Positions 37,109 to 61,836 of a stretch of DNA of 64,000 bases are shown in pieces. The stretch spans positions 32,001 through 96,000 of the forward strand of contig CH464491.1 in assembly GCA_000002445.1 (NCBI GenBank), written 5' to 3'. Position numbers and translations under genes: made by a program. Source of the stretch: Trypanosoma brucei (Eukaryota). Within the stretch, counting starts at the first letter, position 1, and each line of letters begins with the position of its first letter. The notes below the pieces were generated by a model. The model was not told where the DNA came from and made no database searches. It worked only from the letters and a program-made list of their open reading frames with translations.

Positions 37109-39274
37109 CTAACTGGAAGACTCCACACGGGAAGATTTGCGAGACCCTCTGAGGACATTTACGTTACTCAGTGATGAATCAGAGGAAGGAGTCAACATCC
37201 AGGGAGGTTTAATTTTGCTTGGAGAAAGGACCTGCTCCACAGAAGGTGCACAATCCGTTTTCGATGCCGCTGAACCATGAGTGGACTGTTCTCTTTCAGC
37301 TTTTGGTGCATCCTCAACCGGTTGTTCCCGACATTGCACAGCCTCACACTTCTTCTGAAGTACCGAAACTAAGTCCTCCGCAGAGTGGTTATACTCCTTT
37401 GGATTGAAAGATGACAATAACTGACGCATCTTCTCTTCGTTTGCCTCACGGCGTCTCCGTTCCTCTTGTAGTTCCTCGAGAAATGTCTCAAGAGCACGCT
37501 CTGTTCTCGTATCAGACTTTTGTATCTCTCGAAACTCCTCGCGAAGGCGTTCAACCCGCTGGTCATCTTTTTCAGCTTTACACCCAGAATTTTCCTGAAG
37601 ATTATTTTCCCCTCCTTGCAGAGGGAGCTCTTGCTTGTGGTGTGCAGACTTATCCGCTGCTTCAGTGGAAGTAACCTGCCGAGAAACGAGGGCCCTTTTC
37701 AGGCTCATAACACAACGCCGATAGACGTGCTCACGCCTCGCATAACGATCTAACTCACTTTGCAAGTGAACAAATAACCTAAACCACAACGTTCCATGTG
37801 CAACTTCAAAAGGGCACCGAGGGCATCGGTGCTTTCCATGAGCAGATGAATCGATCCGACAATCATGGCACTTATTGCTACACCCTTTTATAAATTCATC
37901 GCTCTTCGAGTTAACGTCTGCAACTTCAGCACCACTTGTATCATTTCTGTGATTCACAGCCGCTGTAGCACATCCCACTTTTTCGTAAGATGCTTTGTTT
38001 GAAGCCAAGCAACTTTTCCCTCCGCCCATACCGTTTTCCCCTCCCATGTGACGTTGGATTTGTCTTTCGGGTCCCTTTACTCGCGTCGTGTAAAATACAA
38101 AATCGTCAGTCTTTTCCCCCAATTTGCTAGTTCCCACAACATGTTTATCTGCAATGTGCGTCGCTGTGCCCCCTTTGCAGGCACAGATCCATTCTTTAAG
38201 GAGGCACATGGAGCAAGAAGTACTGATGCCGTTGCGCGAAGCATACACGTGGGCTCCTGTGGCAGCTATACGATATGATTCCCTAAACGTTTCCGGGAAT
38301 TTTGTTCCAACAGGAGTGGCGGGAGCAAAACATGAAACCCACAACCCCGGACGCCGGCCAAGTAGCGCCGGTTCAACTAGAGATGAGAGCGCAGTGGTGA
38401 TTCGCACCTCATGAGGCGCACGGCATTCGAGAAGTTGAGCAGCCGTGACTATGCAGTGTCGTGTTGAACAGACGCTACGTGCCCGTTCTGAGGCAGAAAG
38501 TGATACAAACCATAACGTTGTGTTCTTTTGTCGTGAAGAAGCGGCGTATCTCAGAGACAACCCGAACAATTGACTACATCCAGAGGAAACAGATCCACGC
38601 ACACACTCCAGTACGGTTCTCATGGCATATTCGTCCTTTATTTCACAGCATGATACATCCTGGAGGAGAGCAATTGCACTCTCACTAGCATGATCATCGC
38701 TAGAACCCCCAAGGTCGGCTTTACTTTTTTTATTTGCAGCTAATGAGACACCTAAAATCAAATCCTTTACAAAACCGTCATCACCAAACTCCATGGCGGT
38801 TAATGAAACGGCCTCTAACAACGCTGCAGTTAAATCCACCGACAAGGACATAAACAACCGACAACATTGAGCTAAAAGTCCTTCCGTTGCATCAAACAAT
38901 GTACAGTTACGAGTTACTTCAGTTCCATCTACTACAATGACGGATTCTGACGAAGCAAACGGAGGCAATATTGCACGCGCTACTGGCAGAACAACGTGAT
39001 CAAAAATCTTCCTGTTTGATTGAGCGAAGAGGTCACACTTTAGCACTTGATGAGCCCTGGAGTCCGTTACATCTGCGATTGTAACTTCACTACCGGTGTT
39101 ATTAATTGTGTAACGCATTCGCGGACAACCGCCAAACACGCGGTGCGCCTCGTCGGGGCGGAACTCTCGAACTGCCACCAGCATTGCAGGAACCTGCTTT
39201 CCAGTATTACTTAATAAATTAAGAATGGTTGGTATGAAGGTATTAAACAAGTTTAAAGACACGCAAAAGTACAC
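37109..39274 (-). CDS. Hypothetical protein (721 aa) with a Cys/His cluster and a C-terminal coiled-coil.
   Basis: A long co-oriented ORF. The Cys/His cluster reads CHDCRIDSSAHGKHRCPRCPF. The coiled-coil region includes RVERLREEFREIQKSDTRTERALETFLEELQEERRRREANEEKMRQL. Confidence 0.5.
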   Translation of the reverse strand: MYFCVSLNLFNTFIPTILNLLSNTGKQVPAMLVAVREFRPDEAHRVFGGCPRMRYTINNTGSEVTIADVTDSRAHQVLKCDLFAQSNRKIFDHVVLPVARAILPPFASSESVIVVDGTEVTRNCTLFDATEGLLAQCCRLFMSLSVDLTAALLEAVSLTAMEFGDDGFVKDLILGVSLAANKKSKADLGGSSDDHASESAIALLQDVSCCEIKDEYAMRTVLECVRGSVSSGCSQLFGLSLRYAASSRQKNTTLWFVSLSASERARSVCSTRHCIVTAAQLLECRAPHEVRITTALSSLVEPALLGRRPGLWVSCFAPATPVGTKFPETFRESYRIAATGAHVYASRNGISTSCSMCLLKEWICACKGGTATHIADKHVVGTSKLGEKTDDFVFYTTRVKGPERQIQRHMGGENGMGGGKSCLASNKASYEKVGCATAAVNHRNDTSGAEVADVNSKSDEFIKGCSNKCHDCRIDSSAHGKHRCPRCPFEVAHGTLWFRLFVHLQSELDRYARREHVYRRCVMSLKRALVSRQVTSTEAADKSAHHKQELPLQGGENNLQENSGCKAEKDDQRVERLREEFREIQKSDTRTERALETFLEELQEERRRREANEEKMRQLLSSFNPKEYNHSAEDLVSVLQKKCEAVQCREQPVEDAPKAEREQSTHGSAASKTDCAPSVEQVLSPSKIKPPWMLTPSSDSSLSNVNVLRGSRKSSRVESSS

Positions 39275-41966: not shown

Positions 41967-44921
41967 TCAACTGGACTGGGATTCTCCTTCAGTTCGACTG
42001 GTTTTGACTCTCTCCACAAGTTGCTTGTTGACGTGCAGTAGTCGCATCGCCTTTTCCTGAATATCGGCATTCTGTTTTTGTAACTCCTCGTGGCCCTTAC
42101 GTAGCGACTCCTCTCTACTCGCAGAAGCCGCAAGCTCTGCACGCAAACGCGCCAACTCTTCATCTCTTCCTCTAATGAGCGACTCGTGCGCACTCATTGC
42201 GGCAGCCAACTGCTCCTTCAGGGCGGCTAACTGTCCCTGCTCGCCTTCGGTTGCCGTGTCGGCGCCCTGCAATGGTTCCGTTTCCTCCGCAACATCTAAA
42301 GCCGCTGTCTCTGTTTGAAGGGAGTTTCGGAACAGCTCCGCCCGCTGCAGCGCCTGCCGCAACGTATCCGCCACCTGCCTCACGCCAGATCGAAGTAAAT
42401 GAGACTCTATGGCTTCCTTTTCTCCACTGTTCCCCGGTATTGTTTCCGACAAATACACGAGCTGCTCTTTCACAGCAGTGAATCCACTACACAGTTCCTC
42501 TAGCTGTTGTCCAAGTGGTCCCTTCATGCATTCCACACGCTCTTCGGGGTTGCTGGCTGGAGGTGACTGTTCACCGTCCGCAGCAATCTGTTGGAGTTGT
42601 CGTTGCTGACGATGCAGTTGCTCTACCAGGGTTGTCTCGCGTGTGAGATGTTCCTGCAACGACGACAAAAGGTCGCTGTTGTGGTTCTTCAGTAGCTTCA
42701 GTTGCAGAGCAGTGTGTTCGGCATCCTCGCTAATATTTTGCTTTTCTTCCCGTAATGCTGCCAATTCGGTCATGGCTGCATCTCGCACAGCCTGAAGTGA
42801 TGTAAGTTGTTCCCGCATTGCTGCTATCTGCTCGGAAGCCTCCACAGCGTCAAGCGAATTGTCTACCGGTGCTTCGTGCATCAGCACACGATCCATCGCA
42901 ACCAAACCATGCTGATCAATCAATTGCTCGCAGCGGGCAAGCCGTTCCAATGCCAAATCTCGTTCTTTAGTTACCTCACGCACCTTGTCCAGTAGCATAC
43001 TCACGTTTTGCCCGTCGTTGATGGCAGCATCCAACAAATTGGTCTCCGTCATCTGAGTTGTCTCAAGTTTATTTGATAAGAAATGTAATGTCTGCGCCAA
43101 GGTCTCCCGCAGCAAAGAGCGAATTTCGTCACGTTGGTGTCTCTCCATTGTCACATCCACAACAACGGCAGCGTTTTCCGAACGATCGTTCGCGGCGCTA
43201 GCAACCGATTGCAGTGACTCAAACGTTGCGATCAGCCGCAAAACCTGCTGCCCAAAGGCACGCAAGTCCTCCTCACGTTGCGCTGCTTTATCATTCAACA
43301 TTGCTTCAAAGGAGGTTATTGCCTTCTGAAAGTGTGCTTCACTCCGTGAAACCGCGTCCTTGACTTCAGCAGCCAGTTGACCTGACTGTACGACACCACT
43401 CCCGCCCTGATGTCTTCTCCCCTTGTCGTCAACTCGCTTGGAATCGACACGTTGCAGAGCGGATGAAACATCAGTCATTGTGCGCTCCGTTATCTTAAGT
43501 GCTTCCTCTACCTCTCTTGTTGCTCGTTGCTGCGTTTCGGCTTGCGCGACGGCCAGCGCACATTGCGTTTCTGCATTTACTGTATCATTCCGTAAACGAG
43601 AAACCTCCTCCTCATAGTACCGTCGCAGTGCAGCCACCGTGTGTACCACCTTACCTGCATCCGAATCATCTTTCAATTGCTGGACGGTTCTTTCCAACTC
43701 CGCGCACTTGGCCCTCTCGTCAGACAACTGTTCCCGCGCCATATTCAGAGATGTCGCCATCTGAACGGAGTTATCGAGAGCCCTTGTATAGTCCATGCGC
43801 AGTTGCGTCAGCTGCTGCGAAAGCGATTCACTACCACTGGGATGAATACGCTCACGCACCAAATCCGCCAACCTGTGTTCCACTACTTCCCGCCTCTGCC
43901 GCTCCTCAATGAAGTGCTCATGGACTGTCAGCGCCTCCCGTCGCAACACGGCAACTGACTCCTTAAGAGCGACATATTTCGCCTCCGCCTCCGCAATACG
44001 TGACTCCTGCCGCTGCCACGCATCGACAAGCTCAGATAACGTCACATCACGGTGCTGCAGTAGTCGTAGGGCAAAGTACTCCGGTGCGGTACGCTGCAAC
44101 GCTGGATTCGGCGGCTCCGTTCCCGGCTGTACGGGCACGAAATCTGGGGGAACTATAGCATGCACAACACCACTAAGGTCCAAATGTTTCTCAAGGAGGC
44201 GTACGTGGGCCTTTGCTTGACGAAGTTGTGAACTCACATGGTCTGCATCCTTACCCTTTGAAGCCAAAATGCGCACCATATCGATAAGAGAAAGCACCTC
44301 TTCATGATGGCGAAGGGATGCATTCTGATAAAAGGAAAGAGAACTCTGCAGACGGGCAATAGTAACGTCCTTTTTCAATGCCGAGAGGTCGGCATCTAGA
44401 GCCCTCTGCGAGTACACCTGAAGGGCCTGAAGCGCACCCCGGAGAAGATTCTGCACACGTTCCACAAGTTTTTCATTTATTTGCTGCTCACCCTCCAGTT
44501 GCGATGAAAACAAAGCAATTGTCGTCTTACTCGCTGAGTCGAAACCTTTCATCAGTTCACCCACGGCAAGGGCGGTAGAACTCTCTAACTGCTCCTTCAT
44601 AATACCTATTGAGAGGGTTTTCTGCCGAGAGTCATCCGCAATACGAGCATGTGAAAGGGCAGTAACTACACGGTTCGCTTGGCATCGCGACATCTGCTTC
44701 CATAATTCGGCATTTGAAGTGCGTGATCCCTCTAACGTGCGCTGAAGTTGCTGCGCCTTTCGCACTACAGACTGCAGTACAGCACCGTTAACGCTGCCGA
44801 CACTTTTCGTAATCTCATCCAACTCCAATGACATGTGCTGGAAAGTGGCGGAGCAGGTTTCCTGTATTGCACCTTCCCCTTCACTATTCTCTTCCCTCGA
44901 CCTTTTTGACCCAGGGAACAT
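41967..44921 (-). CDS. Large coiled-coil protein (984 aa).
   Basis: Almost entirely heptad-repeat sequence rich in E, L, Q and R. It is co-oriented and sits next to LC8. Confidence 0.55.
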   Translation of the reverse strand: MFPGSKRSREENSEGEGAIQETCSATFQHMSLELDEITKSVGSVNGAVLQSVVRKAQQLQRTLEGSRTSNAELWKQMSRCQANRVVTALSHARIADDSRQKTLSIGIMKEQLESSTALAVGELMKGFDSASKTTIALFSSQLEGEQQINEKLVERVQNLLRGALQALQVYSQRALDADLSALKKDVTIARLQSSLSFYQNASLRHHEEVLSLIDMVRILASKGKDADHVSSQLRQAKAHVRLLEKHLDLSGVVHAIVPPDFVPVQPGTEPPNPALQRTAPEYFALRLLQHRDVTLSELVDAWQRQESRIAEAEAKYVALKESVAVLRREALTVHEHFIEERQRREVVEHRLADLVRERIHPSGSESLSQQLTQLRMDYTRALDNSVQMATSLNMAREQLSDERAKCAELERTVQQLKDDSDAGKVVHTVAALRRYYEEEVSRLRNDTVNAETQCALAVAQAETQQRATREVEEALKITERTMTDVSSALQRVDSKRVDDKGRRHQGGSGVVQSGQLAAEVKDAVSRSEAHFQKAITSFEAMLNDKAAQREEDLRAFGQQVLRLIATFESLQSVASAANDRSENAAVVVDVTMERHQRDEIRSLLRETLAQTLHFLSNKLETTQMTETNLLDAAINDGQNVSMLLDKVREVTKERDLALERLARCEQLIDQHGLVAMDRVLMHEAPVDNSLDAVEASEQIAAMREQLTSLQAVRDAAMTELAALREEKQNISEDAEHTALQLKLLKNHNSDLLSSLQEHLTRETTLVEQLHRQQRQLQQIAADGEQSPPASNPEERVECMKGPLGQQLEELCSGFTAVKEQLVYLSETIPGNSGEKEAIESHLLRSGVRQVADTLRQALQRAELFRNSLQTETAALDVAEETEPLQGADTATEGEQGQLAALKEQLAAAMSAHESLIRGRDEELARLRAELAASASREESLRKGHEELQKQNADIQEKAMRLLHVNKQLVERVKTSRTEGESQSS

Positions 44922-45578: not shown

Positions 45579-47741
45579 CTAAGCATCTTCTATATCATAT
45601 GGTGTTTTTCGTATAATTGACACATCCATACTAGGAACCATAAACTTACTATCGGAGCTCTCTACATCCCAATCATGAAATGCGGGTCCCGTGGAGTCCA
45701 CATAAGCACCACTACTCTCGTGCGATTGCGTTTTCTTAATGGAAACTCCACTCTCATTTCCCCCATCTGAAAGTACATTTTCGGCATTGTAATTTAAACC
45801 CCCGCCAACGCTGGAAATCGCATTGGCTCCCTCACGACTTAGACTCACTTTGGCTGGTGGCACCGTCGTCGAACACTCCGCCACAGGAGTACGGCAAAAA
45901 TCCAGCTTCTCATCGCATGGAAGAGCAGAAAGGATCATTTGCCGCGAGACAGCAGATTGGCAATGAAGAATGTCGCTGAGCTTATCGTCCATAACTTTAT
46001 TGTTGTGGGCTGTTAGCCGCCCCACCTTCACAACCGTCTCACGAAGCTGCTTCAGTTCCGTACACAGAGGCGGTGCAACTGTCGTATTCATGTCGTCCAA
46101 ACTTCGTTGAATATTACGCAAAAGGGCCGCGTGTTCACTTTTTATTTCTCCCATGGTAATTGATGGGGTTAGTTGTGGAGCATTGTATCCTGCATCCCTC
46201 ACCGCCTTCCTCAAGTCGCCGATCAACTCCTCAGAAGACGCGCGCATGGACTCTACAGATAATCTTATGGGTAAAAGGCATCCCTGAAGTTCCTTTTTTA
46301 TCACTTCCAGCACGGTGTCACCAACAATAGCGCGCATCTCCGCAACCGATGTGGTAACATCGTTGCAGCCCGGAGATGCAGCAGAGTGAACTTCAACGAG
46401 ATGTGGAGAAGTTCCAGGCGTTCGTGGCAAAACAGGTTGTTTGCTTCCCGCTGGCGTCCTCTGCGGTGTGATAAAGGGAGCCTCCTGCAAAGCGAACGCG
46501 TGTTGCTGCAGAAGCCAACGCAAAGCATATGTTAACTCCTCCATGGCCTCTGTCTCAAGGGCGTAACGCTCGCAACTGTGAGTAAGGAGAAGTTCATTTA
46601 GAAGTAAGTCATCGATTTCCGCCTGCATTTCCATCATCAATGACTCGTCGGATCCGCCAGCCCTCGGAACCTTCTGCAGTCCTTCCTCTTGGAGATTGAG
46701 CTGGTTTCGAAGCGACGCAATCACCTCTTCCTTCTCCTCTAACTCCCGTTTTAGCTGTTCGATGGTTTCATCCGCTCGCTTCTTCGACTGATGCAGCTCC
46801 GCTAAGAGAGTACTTTTCATACCAGTTGCTGGAGTTGCCCAACAATCTTCTTCTTGTTGCCCTGAGTATTGACGTGAAGTTGACGTGCAGCGCTGCGCAG
46901 GACAACTCACGGGTCGATCGGTGTACGCTTGATTCCATGTTTTTTCACTTCGACAGCCATGGCGCGCAACACCCAATTCTTCAGAGTGCCTTTCTACACT
47001 TGAGTATTGCTTATGGGCAAGAGCTGACATAGTGTTTGAGCACCTTTCTTGAATAACCGTCCTCCAACTGGCTTCCGCAAACACAAGAGCCTCTCGAGTG
47101 TTCCGTTCATTTTCTTCAAATAACAACAGTTGTTGCTCACGGTGAAACTCGGCATCACGTCTGCAAATACTCTGCACTGACGTTAGCTGATATTCGGCTC
47201 TATGTAACTTGTCCTGCAAACGGTGCATCTGATCCCCAAGTGACTGGATCTCACGCTCTTTCAAGATACTTTGCTGACGAGAACGTTCGTACGCCGCACG
47301 CATTTCTTCAGCTCGATCAACAGCCTCACTTCGCTCCTCATCAAACTGCTTGGCAAGCTGTTGCAGATGATCAATTTCCTGCAAGTAAGACTCTTCAACA
47401 CCGTGCAGAGCGCCACGATTATTACTCGTTTTAGCACGCTTACGGCGACTGGTAGATGAAACTTGTAAATCTTGCGTGCGGGCACCGGAACCAATTGATG
47501 ACCTCATCCTGACCGGTGGATCAATTCCCTTGTAAGACACACCGCGACTCGAATTTGCGAATGTTACGTGCGATGACTCCAAAATGTGACTGAAGTCACG
47601 TGGGGGCGAATGGCAGGCGCAGTCGCAACCTATTGAAAGAAGACCACCGTTGTCACGAGGCGTCACACCTTCCTTCCGCGCTGAGGAGGGTACCGTCTCG
47701 GCAGGAAACCACATAGTCATTTGGTAAAGGAGAGAGCACAA
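45579..47741 (-). CDS. Coiled-coil hypothetical protein (720 aa).
   Basis: It has a central coiled-coil region, for example LQQLAKQFDEERSEAVDRAEEMRAAYERSRQQSILKEREIQSLGDQMHRLQDKLHRAEYQL. Co-oriented. Confidence 0.5.
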   Translation of the reverse strand: MCSLLYQMTMWFPAETVPSSARKEGVTPRDNGGLLSIGCDCACHSPPRDFSHILESSHVTFANSSRGVSYKGIDPPVRMRSSIGSGARTQDLQVSSTSRRKRAKTSNNRGALHGVEESYLQEIDHLQQLAKQFDEERSEAVDRAEEMRAAYERSRQQSILKEREIQSLGDQMHRLQDKLHRAEYQLTSVQSICRRDAEFHREQQLLLFEENERNTREALVFAEASWRTVIQERCSNTMSALAHKQYSSVERHSEELGVARHGCRSEKTWNQAYTDRPVSCPAQRCTSTSRQYSGQQEEDCWATPATGMKSTLLAELHQSKKRADETIEQLKRELEEKEEVIASLRNQLNLQEEGLQKVPRAGGSDESLMMEMQAEIDDLLLNELLLTHSCERYALETEAMEELTYALRWLLQQHAFALQEAPFITPQRTPAGSKQPVLPRTPGTSPHLVEVHSAASPGCNDVTTSVAEMRAIVGDTVLEVIKKELQGCLLPIRLSVESMRASSEELIGDLRKAVRDAGYNAPQLTPSITMGEIKSEHAALLRNIQRSLDDMNTTVAPPLCTELKQLRETVVKVGRLTAHNNKVMDDKLSDILHCQSAVSRQMILSALPCDEKLDFCRTPVAECSTTVPPAKVSLSREGANAISSVGGGLNYNAENVLSDGGNESGVSIKKTQSHESSGAYVDSTGPAFHDWDVESSDSKFMVPSMDVSIIRKTPYDIEDA

Positions 47742-48376: not shown

Positions 48377-49723
48377 TTAAAACTGCCGACGAGGGTTCAG
48401 GACTGCTTTACCCCCACCATAACCTCCGTTACGACCCACTGGAGGTCCCTTAACGTAATTCTGAGCAGCAATCATTTGACCCCGTGGCACCGGCAGAAGA
48501 GGTGGTCGCACCATTTGCCTCCCGCCTGTTTGGCGAGGTGTTAAACCCACCGCTGGACGCTGCCTCCCATGGCGCGCATCTCGTTTAGACATGTCCTGCA
48601 CAGCCGCTGTTGGTAAATAACCACTCGCCAAGTAACATATACCCTCCCCTATCTCCGGTTTCAATGGAATTCCATCCCGCATCTTCGAAAGTGGAACGCT
48701 CTGCGGACCCCTTAAATCAGTTTCCTCAAGGAACACGCCATGCTTCATCCACTGTATGAAACAAAGCGAATCACCGGTACCATCGTCAACGGGTGAAAGA
48801 AGTTGACCAAAACCAAATACAGCGGAGCACCGCTGCAGAACAACGATAATTATAACTGGTCCCCTGTCCATTACTTTATAAAAAGCACGCTGGTTCTCTG
48901 GCTCAGTTCGAAAAAAACCGGCTTCGACGGACCTCTCAGCATCCTCTCTCGACATCACCACAACAAAGTAATAAGCGTCCAAGTTTACAACACTCGTGTC
49001 CAGTGGTGCATGAAGAATGGGCATGGTTGCCAATCCATCACCCTTCCGCACTTCCGTGTTGTTAACGTGTTTCCCGTTCCCACACTGATCAATACACGCT
49101 TTCAACTGAGGTCCGAGGTCAGCGACTGAACTAGGCGGTTGTAACAACGATTCAGTGATTGATCGGAACATTGCGGGTGTGGGAATGATGTCACTAAGGG
49201 CGACATGTATGAAGTTGCGGGGGAAAAATTCCATGACAGGCGGTACTAAAAGCAACTTTGCGGGATCCTGTAACACGACCCAACCGCGTCCCGTGCACGC
49301 ACCTGTGGGATCCGTAAAGATGTCGGCTTCCGCTACCATGTCGAATGCTTCAAAAAAGCGCCCGAGCATTTCAGCTGTTGTGTTCGGGGGTAAATTCGAT
49401 ACATACGCGCAAACATAACCGCCGGTGACGGGGACAAGATCACCAGTTGCGGGATCGGGTACGTATGCCTCGTAATGCGCATATGGAAGTAATCTGCATG
49501 CAGTGACACCACGCTCTGTAGCATCAGTAGATAACGGTACTTCCTGTGGTGGGACGTTACCTGGATCAAAGAGGAGAGTCCCCTCAGGAAGTCTCGGATA
49601 CAAAGCTAGACGACCATCCTCGAGGAGATTAAACTTCTCACCATTGACATAAACAAACGAAGAATCACTTTCTTTCTCCTCCATTTTGTTTTTGTGTGCG
49701 TGATAGTTGGTAGTGTAATACAA
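48377..49723 (-). CDS. RNA-binding protein with an N-terminal RRM-like domain and a C-terminal YTH-like (PUA-like) domain. This is tentative.
   Basis: An RRM-like RNP2/RNP1 reads GGYVCAYVSNLPP...GRGWVVL. The C-terminal block YYFVVVMSREDAERSVEAGFFRTEPENQRAFYKVMDRGPVIIIVVLQRCSAVFGFGQLLSPV...CFIQWMKHGVF follows the YTH pattern. Compare YTHDF [22 protein letters not shown]...[21 protein letters not shown]. A Gly/Arg-rich tail follows (RNGGYGGGK). Confidence 0.45.
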   Translation of the reverse strand: MYYTTNYHAHKNKMEEKESDSSFVYVNGEKFNLLEDGRLALYPRLPEGTLLFDPGNVPPQEVPLSTDATERGVTACRLLPYAHYEAYVPDPATGDLVPVTGGYVCAYVSNLPPNTTAEMLGRFFEAFDMVAEADIFTDPTGACTGRGWVVLQDPAKLLLVPPVMEFFPRNFIHVALSDIIPTPAMFRSITESLLQPPSSVADLGPQLKACIDQCGNGKHVNNTEVRKGDGLATMPILHAPLDTSVVNLDAYYFVVVMSREDAERSVEAGFFRTEPENQRAFYKVMDRGPVIIIVVLQRCSAVFGFGQLLSPVDDGTGDSLCFIQWMKHGVFLEETDLRGPQSVPLSKMRDGIPLKPEIGEGICYLASGYLPTAAVQDMSKRDARHGRQRPAVGLTPRQTGGRQMVRPPLLPVPRGQMIAAQNYVKGPPVGRNGGYGGGKAVLNPRRQF

Positions 49724-50442: not shown

Positions 50443-52242
50443 TCAAGTACCTTCCCGCTCATCTGCAGTGATTCGTCTCTCAAATATGGCCTCAACGGCA
50501 GCACCACACAAAAGTCGCACCACCGGTAATACCCGACACACCACATATTTCCCAGGGACTCCACTCAAATTCGTTACCCTATAGAAAATAAGTTCTCTTC
50601 CTCCACCATGTTTCGCACTACACCAACGCCACAGCGGGCCGAGAAGAGGTGCAAATCGCATATCAGTTAGCAAAAAAGTGACATGTGTTACTTCGTTAGG
50701 TTGAATCCTAAAATACGTTAGCCCATTTACACTGTTGGCGTACATGAAGGCAAACTGTGCAATAAACTCCTTCACCGTCCCCTCGTCAGGTATCCCAATG
50801 CAATGGCAAACCTCAGAGATCGAAGTTACATTTAAATCTCCCATGTCCGCCACGGTTGCTAACTGATGAGTGGTGGAAACCAACCCAACACATCCGGACA
50901 CAATCGTGCGGCACTCGTTTGCAACTCTCAGCATATTTGAAAAGGAATATGGTCCCAACGATGGGGCGCCCCAGCAACTGGTGCTGCGAACCACCATAGT
51001 TGAACGATCGATGGAGCACTGCGGTGCAGTAAGAACTTCGAGTCGGAATGCAGAGAGGGAATTCATCTCGGCGAAAGAGCAACCGGGAGGGCACACGTCA
51101 GGAAAGGCAATCGAGAACGCAGCGCAAAAACAGTCAAAGAGATCCACATTAGGTGATAACACTAACACGAAAAATACTTCATGAGTAATTTTCGAAGCGT
51201 CTTCGATAGCCTTCCGAAGTACATCCTCAAGGATACGCTGCTGTGCTCCTCTGTCTGATGTAATACAGGCGTCGTACACCCCGCACGTACACGCCCAATA
51301 CTCCACATCTCCTTCAGACTTACGAGTTTGGAATGCTGCTTTGTTTTCATTCATTTGTAAATCCTCGAAGATAAGTTGATCAAGAGAAGGAAGGTGCTTC
51401 ATCCGATCCGATGGAAATGTAAAGAGCGACAGTTGCTGCAGTATGTGCTTATCGGCAACCTTCTCCTCATCTGTTTTTGCACGTTGAGCAACTTTAAGTA
51501 CCGCATGACCGGAAGGAGAGTAGTCATTGTTATCCACAATTACAGGGCGCAGTTCAACAACCTCCAAACGCTTCTCCCTAAAGAGAGGACAATCAAGCAC
51601 AATTGTCTCAAACTCGCCTCCTTCACCCGCTGCGTGCGCACCATACAAGCGCTGAATACTCTCTAGTTCTGGACGTGCAGCAAGAAGGGACGTGCCAAGA
51701 TGCTTTTGCGGTACAAGACCTACTGTTGCCGTCTTGACCAGTATAGCTTCCACGCGCAGAATGGTGGCGATGTCAAGGATCTCCTCAGCGGGCCGCTGCC
51801 ACAAAAATGCAAGTGAACGGAGTTTCAAGCGGCTGCACACATCTTCCACGCGGTGGCGCTGGTAATTAGACAATATGGCGCCCGAAGTGACCGCTTCCAC
51901 CTCAGGAAACTCCTCCTTCACAGAGCGAAGCAGCCTGTAGAGGGCTTCAATTTCATCGCCTTCATCCCGCTTGCTCGTGTAATGAAGATCCTGCACCTTC
52001 GCCTGGTCAGCGCGAATGTAGCCTCTGCGAAACGGCAGTTGCATGCACGCGGCGATTTCCTCCACAACCTCATGACCTACTGTTTGGAAAGAATAAGAAT
52101 CAACCTCATGCACAGTTTCCCGTCCATCGTCGCATTCGGGAGCGATGTTCGCCACAACTACTGGGTAGTGCCCATATCGCATCGAGAGGATAATGGAGAG
52201 TATACTATCCTTTCCCCCGGAGATGAGGGCAATAGTCTTCAT
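50443..52242 (-). CDS. DPH6: Diphthine-ammonia ligase (DPH6). It has an N-terminal PP-loop ATPase plus tandem YjgF/RidA-like domains.
   Basis: The N-terminus MKTIALISGGKDS carries the PP-loop SGGxDS motif, followed by EGGEFETIVLDCPLF. The ~600-aa length with a C-terminal duplicated endoribonuclease-L-PSP-like region matches fungal Dph6. Confidence 0.8.
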   Translation of the reverse strand: MKTIALISGGKDSILSIILSMRYGHYPVVVANIAPECDDGRETVHEVDSYSFQTVGHEVVEEIAACMQLPFRRGYIRADQAKVQDLHYTSKRDEGDEIEALYRLLRSVKEEFPEVEAVTSGAILSNYQRHRVEDVCSRLKLRSLAFLWQRPAEEILDIATILRVEAILVKTATVGLVPQKHLGTSLLAARPELESIQRLYGAHAAGEGGEFETIVLDCPLFREKRLEVVELRPVIVDNNDYSPSGHAVLKVAQRAKTDEEKVADKHILQQLSLFTFPSDRMKHLPSLDQLIFEDLQMNENKAAFQTRKSEGDVEYWACTCGVYDACITSDRGAQQRILEDVLRKAIEDASKITHEVFFVLVLSPNVDLFDCFCAAFSIAFPDVCPPGCSFAEMNSLSAFRLEVLTAPQCSIDRSTMVVRSTSCWGAPSLGPYSFSNMLRVANECRTIVSGCVGLVSTTHQLATVADMGDLNVTSISEVCHCIGIPDEGTVKEFIAQFAFMYANSVNGLTYFRIQPNEVTHVTFLLTDMRFAPLLGPLWRWCSAKHGGGRELIFYRVTNLSGVPGKYVVCRVLPVVRLLCGAAVEAIFERRITADEREGT

Positions 52243-53143: not shown

Positions 53144-55753
53144 TTATTGTGGCGCTTTCGAAGTGGTCCCCTTTACAGCCTTTAGTTTTTCCAACATCTT
53201 AACCAAGACACCTTTTTCCTTGCGGTAAACCTTGCTTGAAAGATCCTTCTGGGCATAGTGTTCAAGTAACGGCACATTTTCAAGTGCGTATGTGTAAGTA
53301 ATACCAAGTGAAGTGAGGAGTGAGTTTTCCTCCTCCGTGAGGACAAAGGGATTCCTGTCTCCTTCTGCTTTCCACCCATTGTCTGTGCGGCTTCTTTGTG
53401 TGCGTGCGTAAGTGGCTCCCTGAATACCACGGCGGCTGAGTGCTGAGACAGCGGCTGTTTGAGGATGAACTCCTCCGGGTGACACACTTCGACGGCGCTT
53501 CCGCTCTGCCGGCGCCACGGTTTCGTTTCGTTTTTCAAACACCGGTTTAATGGGCAAAGATCGATTTAAAATCTCCACAGTGCCCTCTTCATAAAATCTC
53601 TTGGCATCAGATACGGTGGGAAACTGACAGAAGATACCGCTCTTGCTAACATTCAGTTTTATGGGGTAGTTACGAAATGGTAACTGCCGCTCAAGTTGAG
53701 TTCGGTCTAATCCTTCCCGATCACTTCCGAGGGCTTCCGTTGGAATAAAGCACTTTTCGAAGGGTTGGTCCAATGCTGCGATCTCCTCAGTCGCCTCCGC
53801 AACGTTTGCGGTGTCACCCGCGTCACCGGCCACCTGTCGACTGGTGGATTCTTTTTGATCATTACCTACCGAGTTCTCAGCTGTCGCCACACCTTCTCCG
53901 GACGGCACTGGGTCTTGTTTCAAAGGAATATCTGGCACTGCCGACGGTGGGGGGCTGCGTGGCGCCTCTACCTCTTTTGCCCATTCTGCTGGGCCCAATG
54001 CGCGCATTAGAAAAGGAAGAGCAGGGGTAGCCGATTCCTTGGAACCTTCATTCGCTGCTGCAGAGGCGGTGGTTGGTTGAGGTGCTGGCGGTGGTGGTGG
54101 TGGCGGCTGTACTGAAGGAGCCACCTCAACCTCTGTGTTCGTCCCAAAGGTTACAGTTATGGAGACGGTGGTTTGAGTGCCTGCATCACTGCCAAGAAGG
54201 GCCCGCCTACGTTGCACCGCATCTTTCCACGCCTCACAAAATCGATTCGCAACAAATGTGAGGTGCTTATCCATTTCATCACTGAAAGCCTCCGTGTAAA
54301 TATTAGTTTGCGATAGGAGGAAGTCGCCGTCCTTTTCCTCCATGCAGAGAACACCACCCCACTGCCTTTGCATAACTTCCGCCAGCCCACCCTCATCTGC
54401 TGAATTCAACTGAAGAGGTTCGAAACCGCTCCGTTCAGCAAAGGTATTAAAACTGGACAAGAGCAGAGGTTCGGCATCGGATGTGGGAAGGATTGTAGCC
54501 AGCAGCAACCCCGTGATATTCCAATCAGAACCATCCTTACTGGTGTGTGAAACCTGTGGGGGGTACATAAACAGTCCTTCCGCGCAGTCCTTCAGCCACT
54601 GGGTGGTGACCGTGGTTACGGTTTCTCCATCCGCTTCCTCTAGTCCGCCTGGAGCGTCATCCTCATCATCTTCTGAAAAGGTACCAGGAGGAATCATTGT
54701 TACAGGGTCCTCATCATCCGCATTCTCCTCGTTCCACACCCCCTCGTCTCCACATTCGACCATTGCGGTCGCAGCGTTACCCGCGCTGTAACTGAACTCG
54801 TCCTTTATGCTGTCATCGCTTTCATCAACTTCGTTCTTCACTAGTGACACGGAATCGGTATCAACCTTAGCCGACTTCGGTTCTGCAGAACGTCCCTCTG
54901 CAGAAGTAGGTAATACTGAGCATTCTTTCACTGCTTTTGCGGCACAACCCCCTGGGGGCAGATTCGAAATATCACCGGGTAAATTGGGAAGAGAACCCGA
55001 AACCACACAGTGAGTTGCGTCTTCACGCCTTGTCACAATGTAACCACCGTGCTCATTGATTGATAGCGCTACGGTGGCATCCTCGCTAACCACTGGTTCG
55101 AGAAAAAATCGACAGTGGGAAAACAAGCGTGACCGGCAAAGTGTGGCACACGAAGAAATCGGGACGTGTGGAAGCCGTACTTGCCACTCCGCCAGACGCA
55201 AACAGGAAGAAAGGGCTCTCAATAGTGCAAGCGAGTGTGGCACCTGATTTACCCCATGCTTCACCTCCACAAGCTGCGGATACATGGATGGGCTCCAGTC
55301 AGCGCGCGAAGTTGCCACAATCACTGAAGTACTGTACTCATCCGCACTGCACCCGATGCATGCAAGGTGTAGTTTGTCTCTCCCTGGTTCAGGATGAATG
55401 GACCGAATTTCGTCGAAGGCCGTCCACCCAAATAAGCTCAAAAGCTTCTTAGTCTTCGCTCGTTTCCACGGTGCAATCACAACAACAGTGCTACCAGCCA
55501 GTTTCAGGGTCTCCAAGAAGAGTGACGAGGTGGGGTAGGATGTTATTGGTCGATATTCCCCATCCACAAGGAGGTACCGCTGCTCAGGTTGACCCGGTCG
55601 TCCTTCCAGATGGCTCGAATCCACAGGTTGGAATGTCAAAAGGGTGTCGGCACAAACAAAAAAACGCAATCTCTTCCACGATGCACCGCTCCCACCGTCA
55701 ACGTCGGTCATCCTATGTATAAACTTCGCGAAGTGGCAGAGGCGGGCAACCAC
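53144..55753 (-). CDS. Hypothetical protein (869 aa) with Pro/Gly/acidic low-complexity linkers and a possible RRM-like segment near the C-terminus.
   Basis: A long co-oriented ORF. The segment PIKLNVSKSGIFCQFPTVSDAKRFYEEG is weakly RRM-like. There is a PPPPPPAPQP linker. Confidence 0.5.
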   Translation of the reverse strand: MVARLCHFAKFIHRMTDVDGGSGASWKRLRFFVCADTLLTFQPVDSSHLEGRPGQPEQRYLLVDGEYRPITSYPTSSLFLETLKLAGSTVVVIAPWKRAKTKKLLSLFGWTAFDEIRSIHPEPGRDKLHLACIGCSADEYSTSVIVATSRADWSPSMYPQLVEVKHGVNQVPHSLALLRALSSCLRLAEWQVRLPHVPISSCATLCRSRLFSHCRFFLEPVVSEDATVALSINEHGGYIVTRREDATHCVVSGSLPNLPGDISNLPPGGCAAKAVKECSVLPTSAEGRSAEPKSAKVDTDSVSLVKNEVDESDDSIKDEFSYSAGNAATAMVECGDEGVWNEENADDEDPVTMIPPGTFSEDDEDDAPGGLEEADGETVTTVTTQWLKDCAEGLFMYPPQVSHTSKDGSDWNITGLLLATILPTSDAEPLLLSSFNTFAERSGFEPLQLNSADEGGLAEVMQRQWGGVLCMEEKDGDFLLSQTNIYTEAFSDEMDKHLTFVANRFCEAWKDAVQRRRALLGSDAGTQTTVSITVTFGTNTEVEVAPSVQPPPPPPPAPQPTTASAAANEGSKESATPALPFLMRALGPAEWAKEVEAPRSPPPSAVPDIPLKQDPVPSGEGVATAENSVGNDQKESTSRQVAGDAGDTANVAEATEEIAALDQPFEKCFIPTEALGSDREGLDRTQLERQLPFRNYPIKLNVSKSGIFCQFPTVSDAKRFYEEGTVEILNRSLPIKPVFEKRNETVAPAERKRRRSVSPGGVHPQTAAVSALSRRGIQGATYARTQRSRTDNGWKAEGDRNPFVLTEEENSLLTSLGITYTYALENVPLLEHYAQKDLSSKVYRKEKGVLVKMLEKLKAVKGTTSKAPQ

Positions 55754-56127: not shown

Positions 56128-56682
56128 TCAAGCACAACGGACTCCTAATCGCTCCATACCGCGCGCGACAACGTTAAGGTGAAGGCGTACAGACCCACTG
56201 CTTATTGTCCGTAATTTGAACCTTTCATCGTTAGTATGAATCATCGTTTTGTCGCAGAGCACCGGTCCACCACCCATTACCGCCTCCCTTAAGTTCTCAT
56301 ACAATCGAATGAAGAAATTCGGGTTCCAAAAGCACGGTTTCCAGGTCTCTACATTTACCTCCTGCTCCTCACCACCAGGTGGTGGCACAAACGCGACACC
56401 ATAACCCGCCAGATCCTTCCTTCCATAGCCGTCTACAGACCACACTTGCATTGAAATCTTTGGCCAACCTTCAACACTGCCCATTGTGTAATGAACATCA
56501 ATGGGGAAGCACCACGCAATGCCTCCACATGAATCGCTCTCCATGATGTGCGTGCAGCCACTTGTGTGACCCTCTACTACCCTCCAGTGCTCACCAGTAA
56601 CAATCTCAAAAGCACAAAAATAAGACTTCCCACCAAAGTCTTCACCGAACGCTAAATCTCCAATAACATGAAGCTCTGCCAT
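56128..56682 (-). CDS. B9D2: B9 domain-containing protein 2 (ciliary transition-zone protein).
   Basis: MAELHVIGDLAFGEDF...YFCAF...WCFPIDVHYTMGSVEGWPKISMQVWSVDGYGRKDLAGYGVAFVP...GGGPVL is collinear with human B9D2 (MAEVHVIGQIIGASGF...[42 protein letters not shown]...GGGPQL). The ORF in the track starts 19 codons earlier, at 56739, in spacer sequence. Confidence 0.85.
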   Translation of the reverse strand: MAELHVIGDLAFGEDFGGKSYFCAFEIVTGEHWRVVEGHTSGCTHIMESDSCGGIAWCFPIDVHYTMGSVEGWPKISMQVWSVDGYGRKDLAGYGVAFVPPPGGEEQEVNVETWKPCFWNPNFFIRLYENLREAVMGGGPVLCDKTMIHTNDERFKLRTISSGSVRLHLNVVARGMERLGVRCA

Positions 56683-57216
56683 GCCCAGGAACACTAACAA
56701 CCACAAAGAGTCTGAAGTCAAATATGCGTAAACGACCAAACGAACACTTCAAAAAAAAAACACGAAAGGAAAGAAGGAAAAAAGGTGAAAATACGCAATA
56801 AAGAAATGCACAGGAGACATACAAACGACTGCATGCGTTTATTATCTTCATTTGTCTCTCCTTTACGAGATTGAATTTGAGGGAGCCGGTATTTAAACAA
56901 CTGCACGTTACCGCAGAATGTACACAACTGAATTTTCTGGATCACCCGCGCTGGCCACTGTAACGTTCCTCCGTCGCAACGACTCGTTTTCCAAACCAAC
57001 AACTATCAAATCACCAAAAGGTAAACTTTTTAGCTAAATAAACACAATAACACGTCCGTACAATGATACGATGGTAAAGAGGGAGAGTAAATAACCCAAA
57101 TACACATATACAAGGGGAAACCAAATAGATACAGGTAAAGAATTTTAAAAAAATTTAAAACATGAGCCACTTCAATCAAAAGGCTCCAGTAAAGAAGCGG
57201 TAGGAGCGGGAAATTG

Positions 57217-59814
57217 CTAAGCAATGGTTGCAGTATCGCCCTCTTCACCAAAAATGACAAGAGGGAACAGAGGTTCCGGATCCTCCACATCCAAAAACCT
57301 AAACGCCGTACCGAGGGAACGTCCATTAAGTGAGAAACTAAGTTCCTTGCAGTTAAAGTCAAGACAGACGGTAATTTGGGACCCGGAAGCGTATGAGCAA
57401 CCGTACGGCACCCCGCTCGCATCATTCACGCTTGCAGCTATTGTTCCATTAGAGCGAAAGAGATAAGCTGGTGCCAAAGCGCGGCGTAGTCCGAAATATT
57501 TTGTTGTCACCCCGACAGCAAAAGTTTTGTCTGATGCGTTAGTTAATGAACGTGAAGCGCCGACACGAACATTAAAAAGCAATTTGCCCTCCGTTACTCC
57601 AACGGCTCCGAGAGCAAACATGGGAATTGTCACCACTGGAGGGCGGGTGCCCCGACGCCTCGTTTCTGCATTTATCAACTCCCGGGCTCTCGAAGCGTCA
57701 CCTAAACAAATGTTTCCCCTATTCGACACAACGACATTGCCGCTCCGTACGGTGTCCCAGTAGTGCACAGGTTTTAGGAGCGAAGAATTTAACTCGAATT
57801 CAGGTGACTGAGGAGAGGACAACTCAAAGGGGGCCTCGCGGCTACCATGATAGGAAACAGAATTTGTAACAGATAAACCGCCGTCGCTTGATTGCTCCAC
57901 GCTTTGATCCACCTGAGCACAACCCACCATGTTATCATCCTCATCTGTTAAAGTATTGACAGGTAATCCAAACTTTCTCACTGGTACACGTGAAAGGTTT
58001 GTTTCAGCCCCACTCGCTACATGCAGTGAAGGGGGTAAGTCAGTACAGGGGAAAAGATCACGAAGCTCTGCTTGGGGGGCCGCCCACTGACAGTCGGTCG
58101 AAAGACAACCGAGATGGCCACTGAATTCGGCAGAGAAACTGCCCCGTATAGGATTAATGGGTTTTTGCTCTTTACAACTGATCTCAGAATCAATTGATGG
58201 ATCTAACGGTTCAAACTCGCAACTCCCTTGCTGAACGGTTAGTCCATGCGCATCATAAGACTTCTTCAGCACATCTGAATGCACCAGCCGAACACCGGTT
58301 TCCGCCTTCACGGTGCCTCTCATGACAGGTTCACGGGGCTTTGACTCTCCACCCCTTTCCGCTGAGGTTACTACCTTCCGGTGACGCTCCGGATATGAAC
58401 CCCTAAATTGTGGAGCGCACATCCCACGTTCCTGCAAGGAAACAACCGTAGAGGGCAAGGGATTGCAAAGTCCATCGCTGCACACACCGAGGGAAGTGAG
58501 TATCTCCTGGTATAGTGAACTTGGAAATCGCTCGCGCGTGTGGATGTCATCCAAGTTTGGCGTTATGAGATATGTATCGCAGGAAGCATTCACATCGCCT
58601 TTATCACTTTCATTTGGAGCAGGATATTCAATGCTTTCCGATAAAGATAAGGTATATTGCGTGTCCCTGGCAGATTGGTATTCAGCAGGCCTACTGGACG
58701 TACCTCGGTGGTACCATTCCGTTTCTCCCTGCGACTCCCCTGCACCCGTCACCGGTGGCACCTCACCGTCGTCACATAAGTACATGTGAAACGAAACAGA
58801 GTCGTCGGAGCATTCACTATCTTTCCTCCCACTCTCACACACTTTTAAGGCACTACCTTTGAAAGGACCTCCCGCCACCACAACAAAAGCTTCATGCGCA
58901 CTTCTGGGCTCGGCTCCTCCAAACACTGCTTCATCCAATAATAGCTGCACGGTGTCCACCAACTCTCGACGCGCAGAGTCCTGGTCATCCTCAGTATCAG
59001 ACCTGATTGCATTCTCTTGGGAAATGAGTTGAGATACGGTACCATTTTCCGGAAGCGGCACTCCGTCATCAAGCGACGCAGTACCCAACTTTAGCGATTG
59101 GGAATCTGCACGCCGTGTTGACTGGCTCAACCCTTTTACGTCTAACCCAACAGACGGGCACCGGGGTGGTGGAGTAACTGTCACTTCAGCAACCACAGTG
59201 TTCAGGAGGGCCAAACGAGGTTCGATGGGAAGCGGCTCAGCGTCGAGCAACTTAAGACCTTCATCGTCGCAGCCTTGAGAGCGGTCAACTTCCATTGCAG
59301 CGCCACGGCGCTCATCCTTCATGGGAAATTCACTGGGGGGCGATATAACATCCTCAGTTATCTTTATTGCTCTAACATCACCGCGGCCACGACTCAAAGA
59401 AAAATCGTGGACAGCAGTAAAATCCTGCCGAATAGCTCTCACTTTGGATATGTACCTGCTTTCCGGTGCTTTGTTACGAGCATCTAAACTGACCTCATTA
59501 TCACCACACTTCACAGGGAGAAAACCAGCCCTCCGGCTACTTCCATTTGCACTGCGTGAGAAAGGGGTCAGTTTGCAATAACATGTTTTCTGTTTACCTT
59601 CTTTCTTACAGTTACGGTTAATAATGCTATTAGAATGCCGACTCCGCGCAAACTTTGCCCTCATTTGATGACTCTGTCCAAACCCCTGGTCGCTCGACTC
59701 TGGTCTTTCTGCTGTTAATGGCATCGATGCGGCCCCTGATGCACGTCTTCCACCCATCTTAAGCGGAAGCGGGTCCTTTCCACCGAAGTTGGTGTCGCAG
59801 GGTAAACTACCCAT
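57217..59814 (-). CDS. SPRY domain-containing protein (865 aa).
   Basis: The C-terminal ~150 aa show a SPRY/B30.2 pattern: FAVGVTTKYF...GSQITVCLDFNCKELSFSLNGRSLGTAF...LFPLVIFGEEGDTATI. The N-terminal region is long, Ser-rich and apparently unstructured. Confidence 0.65.
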   Translation of the reverse strand: MGSLPCDTNFGGKDPLPLKMGGRRASGAASMPLTAERPESSDQGFGQSHQMRAKFARSRHSNSIINRNCKKEGKQKTCYCKLTPFSRSANGSSRRAGFLPVKCGDNEVSLDARNKAPESRYISKVRAIRQDFTAVHDFSLSRGRGDVRAIKITEDVISPPSEFPMKDERRGAAMEVDRSQGCDDEGLKLLDAEPLPIEPRLALLNTVVAEVTVTPPPRCPSVGLDVKGLSQSTRRADSQSLKLGTASLDDGVPLPENGTVSQLISQENAIRSDTEDDQDSARRELVDTVQLLLDEAVFGGAEPRSAHEAFVVVAGGPFKGSALKVCESGRKDSECSDDSVSFHMYLCDDGEVPPVTGAGESQGETEWYHRGTSSRPAEYQSARDTQYTLSLSESIEYPAPNESDKGDVNASCDTYLITPNLDDIHTRERFPSSLYQEILTSLGVCSDGLCNPLPSTVVSLQERGMCAPQFRGSYPERHRKVVTSAERGGESKPREPVMRGTVKAETGVRLVHSDVLKKSYDAHGLTVQQGSCEFEPLDPSIDSEISCKEQKPINPIRGSFSAEFSGHLGCLSTDCQWAAPQAELRDLFPCTDLPPSLHVASGAETNLSRVPVRKFGLPVNTLTDEDDNMVGCAQVDQSVEQSSDGGLSVTNSVSYHGSREAPFELSSPQSPEFELNSSLLKPVHYWDTVRSGNVVVSNRGNICLGDASRARELINAETRRRGTRPPVVTIPMFALGAVGVTEGKLLFNVRVGASRSLTNASDKTFAVGVTTKYFGLRRALAPAYLFRSNGTIAASVNDASGVPYGCSYASGSQITVCLDFNCKELSFSLNGRSLGTAFRFLDVEDPEPLFPLVIFGEEGDTATIA

Positions 59815-60201: not shown

Positions 60202-61836
60202 CTACACATTAACACCCGTACTAATGGGCGGGGGCGCCAGAAGTCCCTCCCGACGAGACATGCCCCGCACCTTTTGCTCAATCAGAGCTCGGGCTGGGTG
60301 TGTTGCCACCATCAACTCCACACCTTGATTGAGCGCCACGTTGAGTATCTGGCGGTTGGACGAGATAACAATAGCCCTGAGGGCATCACCAAGCCCAAAC
60401 ACAAGCAAATTGCGCTGCGACACTTTGCTCGTTGACGCCAACAACGAGACGTGAGTAATGGGGGAGTCACACAATTCTACGTATTGACTGCTCGCATGAA
60501 CAACAGAACAGCACTGCAACAACGAAAGTGCGCGGCGTAACTCCCGTGGTCCAGCGATGGTCTCCAAGATCCACCGGAACTCCGCCAATGTAACATCAGC
60601 AACAATCCAATTGAGGCAGTTGTTCTGGTCCCCTATTTCCCGTCTCTTTGCTTGATCTTCGCGCATCCTCCGAACTACCACACTTTCGCTCAACGGCTCA
60701 CGAGGTGACTCCCCATCAGCAGTTAAATCGACCAGCTTTTGGAGCCAAGAAACTTCAACGCTAACCACAGACGGATTGTCCACGGAGCACCGGCCGTTCT
60801 TTTGTATATGCCCCCGAAGCTCCTTCTCCATGACGTGTACATCGAGCCAGCGGCTGTATTGGTTGAGGATGGGTTCGATGTGTGAGCGCACGCACGGATC
60901 GCTTTTGTCGCGCCGCTGTTGCTCTGCCAAGACACGAAACCCACGAAGTGCTGCAACATTCGACTCCACCGACTCCGCAAAACACGCCTCTGAACAAAGA
61001 GCCACTAACGCCGTTGTGTCAAAACATACATACTTGGGTAACGATACACGTGGTGGAAGAAAATCATCACGCCTCCACAGAGCTTGAAGGGGTCCGCCAG
61101 CAGCTCTGACTTTCAGCTCTGCAATACTAACGGGGCGCGCGCCCATGCTGCGAACTGCATCCGCCATCGTGGCTGGAGGAATGCAGCTAAATAAAACAAC
61201 GACTTCCGGTACTTGCATGAAGGGAAGTTTACTCTCTTTCGCAGCCAAGAGCAGACGAGTAATGGGGTTTTCCCACCCACTTTTGTTCGCCTCATTCTGC
61301 AGACTGTACGTCGAGGCCGCTCGCACCTTCACCCAACGCAAACCACCACACGAAACAAGGTCCACAGGCACCGTTTCCCACCCTCCACTGCTTACTGCGA
61401 CTCGAAACGAAGCACATACCTTCGTCACATTCGGTTCGTTTTCCAGTGCCGTCACCAATGTTTCAAGATAACGCATATCAACCTGATGAGTGGCAGGATT
61501 ATTCAGCGCATTTTCGGCGTGATGTTGGGGTGTCTCCTTCAAAAACTCCTCAACCATAAGCAACCCCTTCTCAATGCGATGCCGCAGCCGTGACAAGTTA
61601 TTTACGGACGCGTATCGCTCACTATTGCCCTCCAGCCTGTCGCGAAGCTTTGTTAACTCCCTCAACAGCTTCTCGTGTGAAGAAACCCCGTCACTAACAT
61701 CACTACTGCCGCAATGAGTTCGACTGATTGAAGTACTCCCACTGCTGCTGAAGTGGCCGCTGAGGTTCAACGATGTGTGATCGCCGTCAGCGCCAAAAGC
61801 ATCCTCGTCAATTGACTGCCATTCATAAATATTCAT
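60202..61836 (-). CDS. Conserved hypothetical protein (544 aa).
   Basis: A long co-oriented ORF. No family recognised. Confidence 0.5.
   Translation of the reverse strand: MNIYEWQSIDEDAFGADGDHTSLNLSGHFSSSGSTSISRTHCGSSDVSDGVSSHEKLLRELTKLRDRLEGNSERYASVNNLSRLRHRIEKGLLMVEEFLKETPQHHAENALNNPATHQVDMRYLETLVTALENEPNVTKVCASFRVAVSSGGWETVPVDLVSCGGLRWVKVRAASTYSLQNEANKSGWENPITRLLLAAKESKLPFMQVPEVVVLFSCIPPATMADAVRSMGARPVSIAELKVRAAGGPLQALWRRDDFLPPRVSLPKYVCFDTTALVALCSEACFAESVESNVAALRGFRVLAEQQRRDKSDPCVRSHIEPILNQYSRWLDVHVMEKELRGHIQKNGRCSVDNPSVVSVEVSWLQKLVDLTADGESPREPLSESVVVRRMREDQAKRREIGDQNNCLNWIVADVTLAEFRWILETIAGPRELRRALSLLQCCSVVHASSQYVELCDSPITHVSLLASTSKVSQRNLLVFGLGDALRAIVISSNRQILNVALNQGVELMVATHPARALIEQKVRGMSRREGLLAPPPISTGVNV

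Follow-up and report, generated by a model that had tools for sequence, protein, structure and literature searches.

RBP43 (G1-IP2) of Trypanosoma brucei contains a divergent YTH domain in which the methyl-binding cage appears to be dismantled

The canonical YTH readers of N6-methyladenosine (m6A), YTHDC1, YTHDC2, YTHDF1-3, AtCPSF30, TgCPSF4, and MRB1/Pho92, share an aromatic cage. A different use of the domain is represented by Schizosaccharomyces pombe Mmi1, whose YTH domain is described in PMC4737157 and PMC6005420 as binding a sequence motif through a noncanonical RNA surface. The poly(A) tails of trypanosome mRNAs carry m6A, and neither a METTL3/14 writer nor an accepted YTH reader is known in these organisms (PMC12905994 among reviews). 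In a 2025 review, the sole trypanosome m6A reader is TRRM2, which has no YTH domain (PMC12905994), and a 2022 survey of evolution regards YTH as having disappeared from kinetoplastids along with METTL3/14. The subject of the present analysis is a gene on the minus strand of a 64,000-nucleotide stretch of Trypanosoma brucei DNA (contig CH464491.1, positions 32,001 to 96,000; referred to below as the window), which encodes RBP43, a protein with an RRM and a YTH domain. It is distinct from TRRM2, a reported m6A-binding protein of T. brucei that is regarded as a reader (PMC12905994) and that contains three RRMs and lacks YTH.

The 435-residue product of the gene (MEEKESD...RRQF, isoelectric point of 5.4) is identical over its full length to the protein of T. 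brucei TREU927 and T. equiperdum. Its mass of 47,513 Da and its two predicted RNA-binding domains agree with those of the “47.5-kDa protein” described in the EIF4E5-EIF4G1 cap-binding complex. It is therefore identified with that protein, which has been named Tb927.11.350 or G1-IP2 (PMC5750579; Zoltner et al. 2018, PMC6075789) and RBP43 (PMC6597758). No difference separates it from the RBP43/G1-IP2 of PMC4105752 and PMC6075789. Complexes of EIF4E5 and EIF4G1 were purified by Freire et al. in 2014 (PMC4105752), and RBP43 associates with EIF4E5, EIF4G1, PABP2, and G1-IP (PMC4105752, PMC6075789, bioRxiv 2022.05.10.491326), the last of these being a capping-enzyme-like guanylyltransferase/N7-methyltransferase protein of the same complex (PMC4105752, PMC6075789). 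In a reciprocal pull-down, RBP43 preferred PABP2, with a 19-fold value versus 4-fold for PABP1 (PMC6075789). In an RNA interference screen, the 47.5-kDa protein was the one member of the complex that was scored as nonessential in 2014 (PMC4105752).

A ferredoxin-like RNA-binding domain and a YTH domain were reported for the 47.5-kDa protein in 2014 on the basis of Phyre2 (PMC4105752; also PMC5750579). The RRM-plus-YTH architecture of RBP43, the novelty of which was implied by an earlier sequence-only reading of this DNA, is therefore already known. What is added here is the mapping of the cage, the description of the N-terminal domain, and the distribution of the family. A literature search linking RBP43, G1-IP2, or Tb927.11.350 with m6A or YTH returned nothing beyond the 2014 Phyre2 note, and no published m6A-binding test of RBP43 was found in the literature searched.

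Residues 236 to 357 of RBP43 form a real but divergent YTH domain, with a resemblance that lies far beyond chance. Searches with the single sequence are too weak to decide its membership, and profiles are needed. The T. brucei sequence alone remains below the threshold of Pfam YTH (PF04146), with an E value of 0.0035 and 17.5 bits versus a gathering score of 22.1, and phmmer of the single sequence against the PDB retrieved YTH chains with E values of 0.4 to 0.6. In contrast, a profile built from 10 Trypanosoma orthologues produced 24 matches in the PDB, every one of them a YTH chain, with Mmi1 scoring best (8e-05), followed by AtCPSF30 (8e-04), TgCPSF4 (0.035), and YTHDC1 (0.036). The profile of the 25-member family aligned with the canonical YTH profile in hhalign with a probability of 99.3% and an E value of 1.1e-19, and 17 of the 25 members match Pfam YTH, with a best E value of 5.9e-09. 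Moreover, the AlphaFold model of UniProt entry Q387L6 has predicted local distance difference test (pLDDT) values of 85 to 92 across the domain, and the best 50 Foldseek matches of this model are all solved YTH domains, with template modeling (TM) scores of up to 0.82.

These results bear out the proposal that the gene combines an RRM with a YTH domain, the former through a Pfam RRM_1 match above the cutoff and the latter through the profiles and Foldseek. The motifs on which that proposal was built are all present in the 435-residue product, as is the Gly/Arg-rich tail, and within the YTH region they comprise FVVVMSRED (residues 240 to 248), GPVIIIVVLQRCSAVFGFGQL (275 to 295), and FIQWMKHGVF (309 to 318). 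The generic PUA-like fold of the EVE/ASCH type that had been offered as an equal alternative could point to the single-sequence Pfam score below the gathering score, but it retains next to no likelihood, being refuted by the hhalign probability, the uniformly YTH matches in the PDB, the Pfam matches of the relatives, and the structural matches. In fact, EVE/ASCH/THYN1 PUA-like domains are clearly further from the C-terminal domain than YTH is and gave no sequence-profile match. Since the T. brucei copy falls under the Pfam cutoff, databases probably label the protein merely as “RRM domain-containing,” and the same subthreshold score is probably also the reason that surveys list kinetoplastids as lacking YTH. 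A precomputed PF04146 match is attached to the T. grayi and T. cruzi orthologues but not to the T. brucei copy.

The positions of the methyl-binding cage were mapped onto RBP43 by profile-profile alignment with the 25 family members, that is, at the level of the alignment only. The human YTHDC1 and YTHDF2 YTH reference sequences are exact matches to PDB entries 4R3H and 4WQN, and W377, W428, and L439 are recovered with the numbering of YTHDC1. In contrast to the canonical readers listed above, RBP43 presents a Phe, a deletion, and a Gly at the three cage positions. W377 of YTHDC1, at the first position, corresponds to F258 of RBP43, and the family has Phe in 21 members, Ile in 2, Leu in 1, and Tyr in 1. 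The second, W428, falls into a deletion in RBP43 and a gap in the family, while L439 at the third position, which is a Trp in YTHDF proteins, aligns with G304, and none of the 25 members has an aromatic residue there. The β4-β5 loop that serves as the lid of the pocket consists of 12 residues in RBP43 versus approximately 25 in YTHDC1, a shortening of about 13 residues. This loop (residues 296 to 307) has no aromatic residue in RBP43 and no conserved aromatic residue across the family. The three-residue cage, for which the YTHDF2 equivalents are W432, W486, and W491, is thus not found in RBP43.

The remaining positions of the canonical face are partly retained. N367 of YTHDC1, which contacts N1, corresponds to D248 of RBP43 (Glu, Asp, or His in the family), and an Asp is native to the equivalent position of YTHDF proteins. 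N363, a polar adenine contact, aligns with S245, which is variable among the relatives. The structural Trp W447 corresponds to W312 and is invariant, and D476-G477 of the RDG motif corresponds to D337-G338, which is conserved. S378, a backbone contact, aligns with R259. Residues 258 and 259 (48908 to 48913, minus strand) are a Phe-Trp pair in 16 of the 25 members and Phe-Arg in T. brucei, T. congolense, and T. conorhini. The copies of African trypanosomes appear to be even less aromatic near the former pocket.

As judged from the alignment, the methyl-binding cage of RBP43 appears to be dismantled, which makes canonical recognition of m6A unlikely, and RBP43 is probably not a conventional m6A reader. 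The sequence-only reading had seen aromatic positions that could form a methyl-binding cage and had named the absence of a cage as the outcome that would count against it; what was found is F258 alone. Its candidate m6A reader consequently survives as a YTH fold and is weakened as a reader. Its further suggestion, to compare the domain with a YTH domain in trypanosome CPSF30, looks misattributed, since the CPSF30/CPSF4 proteins with YTH among the matches are those of Arabidopsis and Toxoplasma.

The closest sequence match of the RBP43 YTH domain in the PDB is S. pombe Mmi1 (5DNO, 5EIM, 6FPP, and 6FPX), with an identity of approximately 15 to 18%. The two proteins differ in that Mmi1 keeps Trp at cage positions 1 and 2 of the alignment, where RBP43 has the Phe and the deletion. 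Furthermore, Mmi1 acts in the nucleus together with the exosome and Ccr4-Not, whereas RBP43 is found in a cytoplasmic cap-binding complex and additionally carries an RRM. RBP43 also differs from the canonical YTH readers in that its YTH domain is fused, on the N-terminal side, to an RRM and to a domain specific to kinetoplastids.

The protein homologue search gave Trypanosoma orthologues alone. An exhaustive profile search with the YTH region recovered 21 proteins at an E value of ≤1e-3 among 1.84 billion representatives, with canonical YTH proteins at the weak end, and the subfamily is therefore small and divergent. The arrangement of N-terminal domain, RRM, and YTH domain recurs in Bodo saltans (CUG89643.1) and in environmental sequences, and the Leishmania infantum orthologue is given in the literature as LINF_250008000. 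RBP43 is thus an old kinetoplastid protein and not an invention linked to trypanosomes or to VSG. Strong conservation of the YTH core and of a DG.PLKPE.G motif extends from Bodo to Trypanosoma, which indicates that the YTH domain is under selection and is no relic. The motif, with the form DG(I/V/T)PLKPE(I/L)G, occupies residues 337 to 346 (approximately 48614 to 48670, minus strand), is near-invariant in the family, and stands in place of the canonical RDGQEI.. segment. It may serve as a functional surface toward RNA or a partner protein.

The RRM of RBP43 is complete, with a match to Pfam RRM_1 (PF00076) at an E value of 9.4e-07 and 29.1 bits versus a cutoff of 20.7. Its model has a pLDDT of approximately 95 and the order β-α-β-β-α-β, formed by β1 (residues 92 to 96), α1 (104 to 111), β2 (117 to 124), β3 (130 to 138), α2 (141 to 146), an extra strand (150 to 154), and β4 (157 to 164). 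Foldseek matches of this domain include the RRMs of RBM38, SUP-12, Musashi, and hnRNP A/B, with TM scores of 0.7 to 0.79. The RNP2 element AYVSNL (within CAYVSNLP, residues 92 to 99) agrees with the consensus and contains Y94. The RNP1-like element RGWVVLQD (GRGWVVL, residues 132 to 138) has, when read against the textbook consensus, W135 at position 3, but its position 5 is Val and its position 8 is Asp, where Phe or Tyr is usual.

Ahead of the RRM lies a beta-rich domain (residues 10 to 90) with the pattern FVYVNGEK..LLEDGRL..FPEG..PP.EVPLS..GVT..L.P..HY, whose strong conservation extends over 21 family members, Bodo saltans among them, and which is modeled with pLDDT values above 90. It has no Pfam match, and its best 50 Foldseek matches are all RRMs, with no other fold among them. 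This domain may be a docking module, perhaps for EIF4G1. At the other end of the protein, the tail (residues 358 to 435) consists of 15% Gly, 14% Arg, and 13% Pro.

It is rather likely that RBP43 is an m6A-independent RNA-binding adaptor of the EIF4E5-EIF4G1-PABP2 messenger ribonucleoprotein particle (mRNP) and that its YTH domain is used in a manner resembling that of Mmi1. In this arrangement, RBP43 would contact RNA on behalf of the EIF4E5-EIF4G1 mRNP, with the RRM and the YTH domain each binding unmodified single-stranded RNA, while the N-terminal domain or the tail would tether the protein to EIF4G1 or PABP2. The YTH domain would work noncanonically and independently of m6A, for which S. 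pombe Mmi1 offers a precedent. Several points weigh against this proposal. The link from XP_828127.1 to Tb927.11.350 rests on mass, domain content, and the chromosome-sized contig. A compensating aromatic residue may be supplied from elsewhere, candidates being F257 or, in 16 of the 25 relatives, the Trp next to the Phe. Part of the canonical face is conserved, since D248 and the RDG-like D337-G338 are kept. Finally, the literature search gave no RNA-binding data for the RRM or the YTH domain of RBP43.

The loss of the cage would also suit a YTH domain that has given up nucleic acid binding and now acts as a protein-protein or structural module in the EIF4E5-EIF4G1-G1-IP complex, leaving contact with RNA to the RRM and the R/G-rich tail alone. 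RBP43 is a stable member of a multiprotein complex, and the strongly conserved DG.PLKPE.G surface motif is unlike the canonical YTH sequence. However, all characterized YTH domains among the PDB matches bind nucleic acid, and the conserved basic residues K314 and H315 (β5) and K342 (in the PLKPE motif) fit contacts with phosphate. The protein-module explanation is for these reasons considered unlikely.

It is doubtful that RBP43, with its cage-poor pocket, is the missing YTH-type methyl-adenine reader of kinetoplastids, whether for the m6A of poly(A) tails, passing, e.g., VSG mRNAs to the PABP2/EIF4G1 mRNP, or for the N6,N6-dimethyladenosine of cap 4. In the first case, RBP43 would read m6A (e.g., in VSG poly(A) tails) through F258 and a remodeled pocket and would couple methylated tails to the PABP2/EIF4G1 mRNP, thereby stabilizing the mRNA. 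In its favor, the YTH fold is real, cage position 1 retains a conserved F258, D248 occupies the N1-contacting position, and RBP43 is found with the poly(A)-binding protein PABP2 in organisms that place m6A in their poly(A) tails yet have no recognized YTH reader. Against this, RBP43 lacks two of the three cage residues, the truncated lid loop has no conserved aromatic residue in the 25 relatives, and YTHDC1 and YTHDF proteins lose m6A binding when a single Trp of the cage is replaced by Ala. The family also occurs in the free-living Bodo saltans and is therefore not tied to VSG biology. A genuine m6A reader of this kind is accordingly improbable.

The second case is speculative and holds that the YTH domain reads the first nucleotide of the trypanosomatid cap 4, N6,N6,2'-O-trimethyladenosine, helping the EIF4E5 complex and G1-IP to distinguish states of cap maturation. 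RBP43 shares its cap-binding complex with a guanylyltransferase/N7-methyltransferase protein, and cap 4 holds a dimethylated adenosine (Bangs et al. 1992, as cited in PMC8868631). The opened pocket could in principle accept the bulkier dimethylamino group. Nonetheless, the loss of the aromatic cage speaks against any methyl-reader function, and the adjacent m7G cap would be taken up by EIF4E5, so that this explanation is very improbable.

The gene was originally delimited as a mechanical open reading frame (ORF) at 48377 to 49723 (minus strand) with TTG as its first codon. The true initiation codon is the annotated and conserved ATG at 49684, and the 39 bases from 49685 to 49723 of the originally reported interval are 5' untranslated region. 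The features of the gene are listed in Table 1.

Table 1. Coordinates of RBP43/G1-IP2 and its domains in the window, with the basis of each assignment
Feature	Coordinates	Strand	Basis or remark
RBP43/G1-IP2 coding sequence	48377..49684	-	100% identity, 100% coverage versus XP_828127.1 / EAN79015.1 / Q387L6
Family-specific N-terminal beta-rich domain, residues 10-90	49415..49657	-	Conservation, AlphaFold pLDDT
RRM, residues 91-165	49190..49414	-	Pfam RRM_1, model, Foldseek
Linker, residues 166-235, predicted disordered, poorly conserved	48980..49189	-	pLDDT 21-33; length and sequence vary across the family
Divergent YTH domain, residues 236-357	48614..48979	-	Pfam, profile, profile-profile, Foldseek
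F258 codon, sole aromatic kept at a cage position	48911..48913	-	Alignment; equivalent of YTHDC1 W377
Shortened beta4-beta5 loop, residues 296-307, LSPVDDGTGDSL	48764..48799	-	Replaces the ~25-residue YTHDC1 loop bearing W428 and L439
Gly/Arg/Pro-rich C-terminal tail, residues 358-435, predicted disordered	48380..48613	-	pLDDT 26-32, composition

The window has the character of ordinary trypanosome chromosomal DNA. All 22 ORFs of at least 200 amino acids in the 64-kb window lie on the minus strand, and each 2-kb bin has a negative GC skew, which is consistent with one polycistronic transcription unit. The neighbors of RBP43, all on this strand, include a protein with a diphthamide-synthase domain and a long C-terminal extension (50443 to 52242), a B9-C2 ciliary basal-body protein (56128 to 56739), a SPRY-domain protein (57217 to 59814), a DUF1308 protein (60202 to 61836), and a dual-specificity phosphatase (34666 to 35448). 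These are unrelated housekeeping genes with no obvious functional tie to RBP43, and they provide no functional context for it. Four large flanking ORFs of 720 to 984 amino acids (45579 to 47741, 53144 to 55753, 41967 to 44921, and 37109 to 39274) match no Pfam family at an E value of ≤1e-3.

The m6A field seems to have overlooked RBP43, a YTH-fold protein that sits beside PABP2 and the cap. In its bioRxiv version, the paper on m6A in poly(A) tails makes no mention of YTH or of readers. Contrary to the view of kinetoplastids taken in the survey and the review, RBP43 has a genuine YTH fold, whose conservation extends from Bodo to Trypanosoma and Leishmania. This directs m6A researchers to a YTH protein that is physically linked with PABP2 and the cap-binding complex; with the canonical cage apparently gone, positive binding of m6A is not to be presumed. 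If RBP43 does not bind m6A, it would be a second case, after Mmi1, of m6A-independent use of a YTH domain. If it should prove to be a methyl-adenine reader after all, YTH-based reading would have survived the loss of METTL3/14 in the kinetoplastid lineage.
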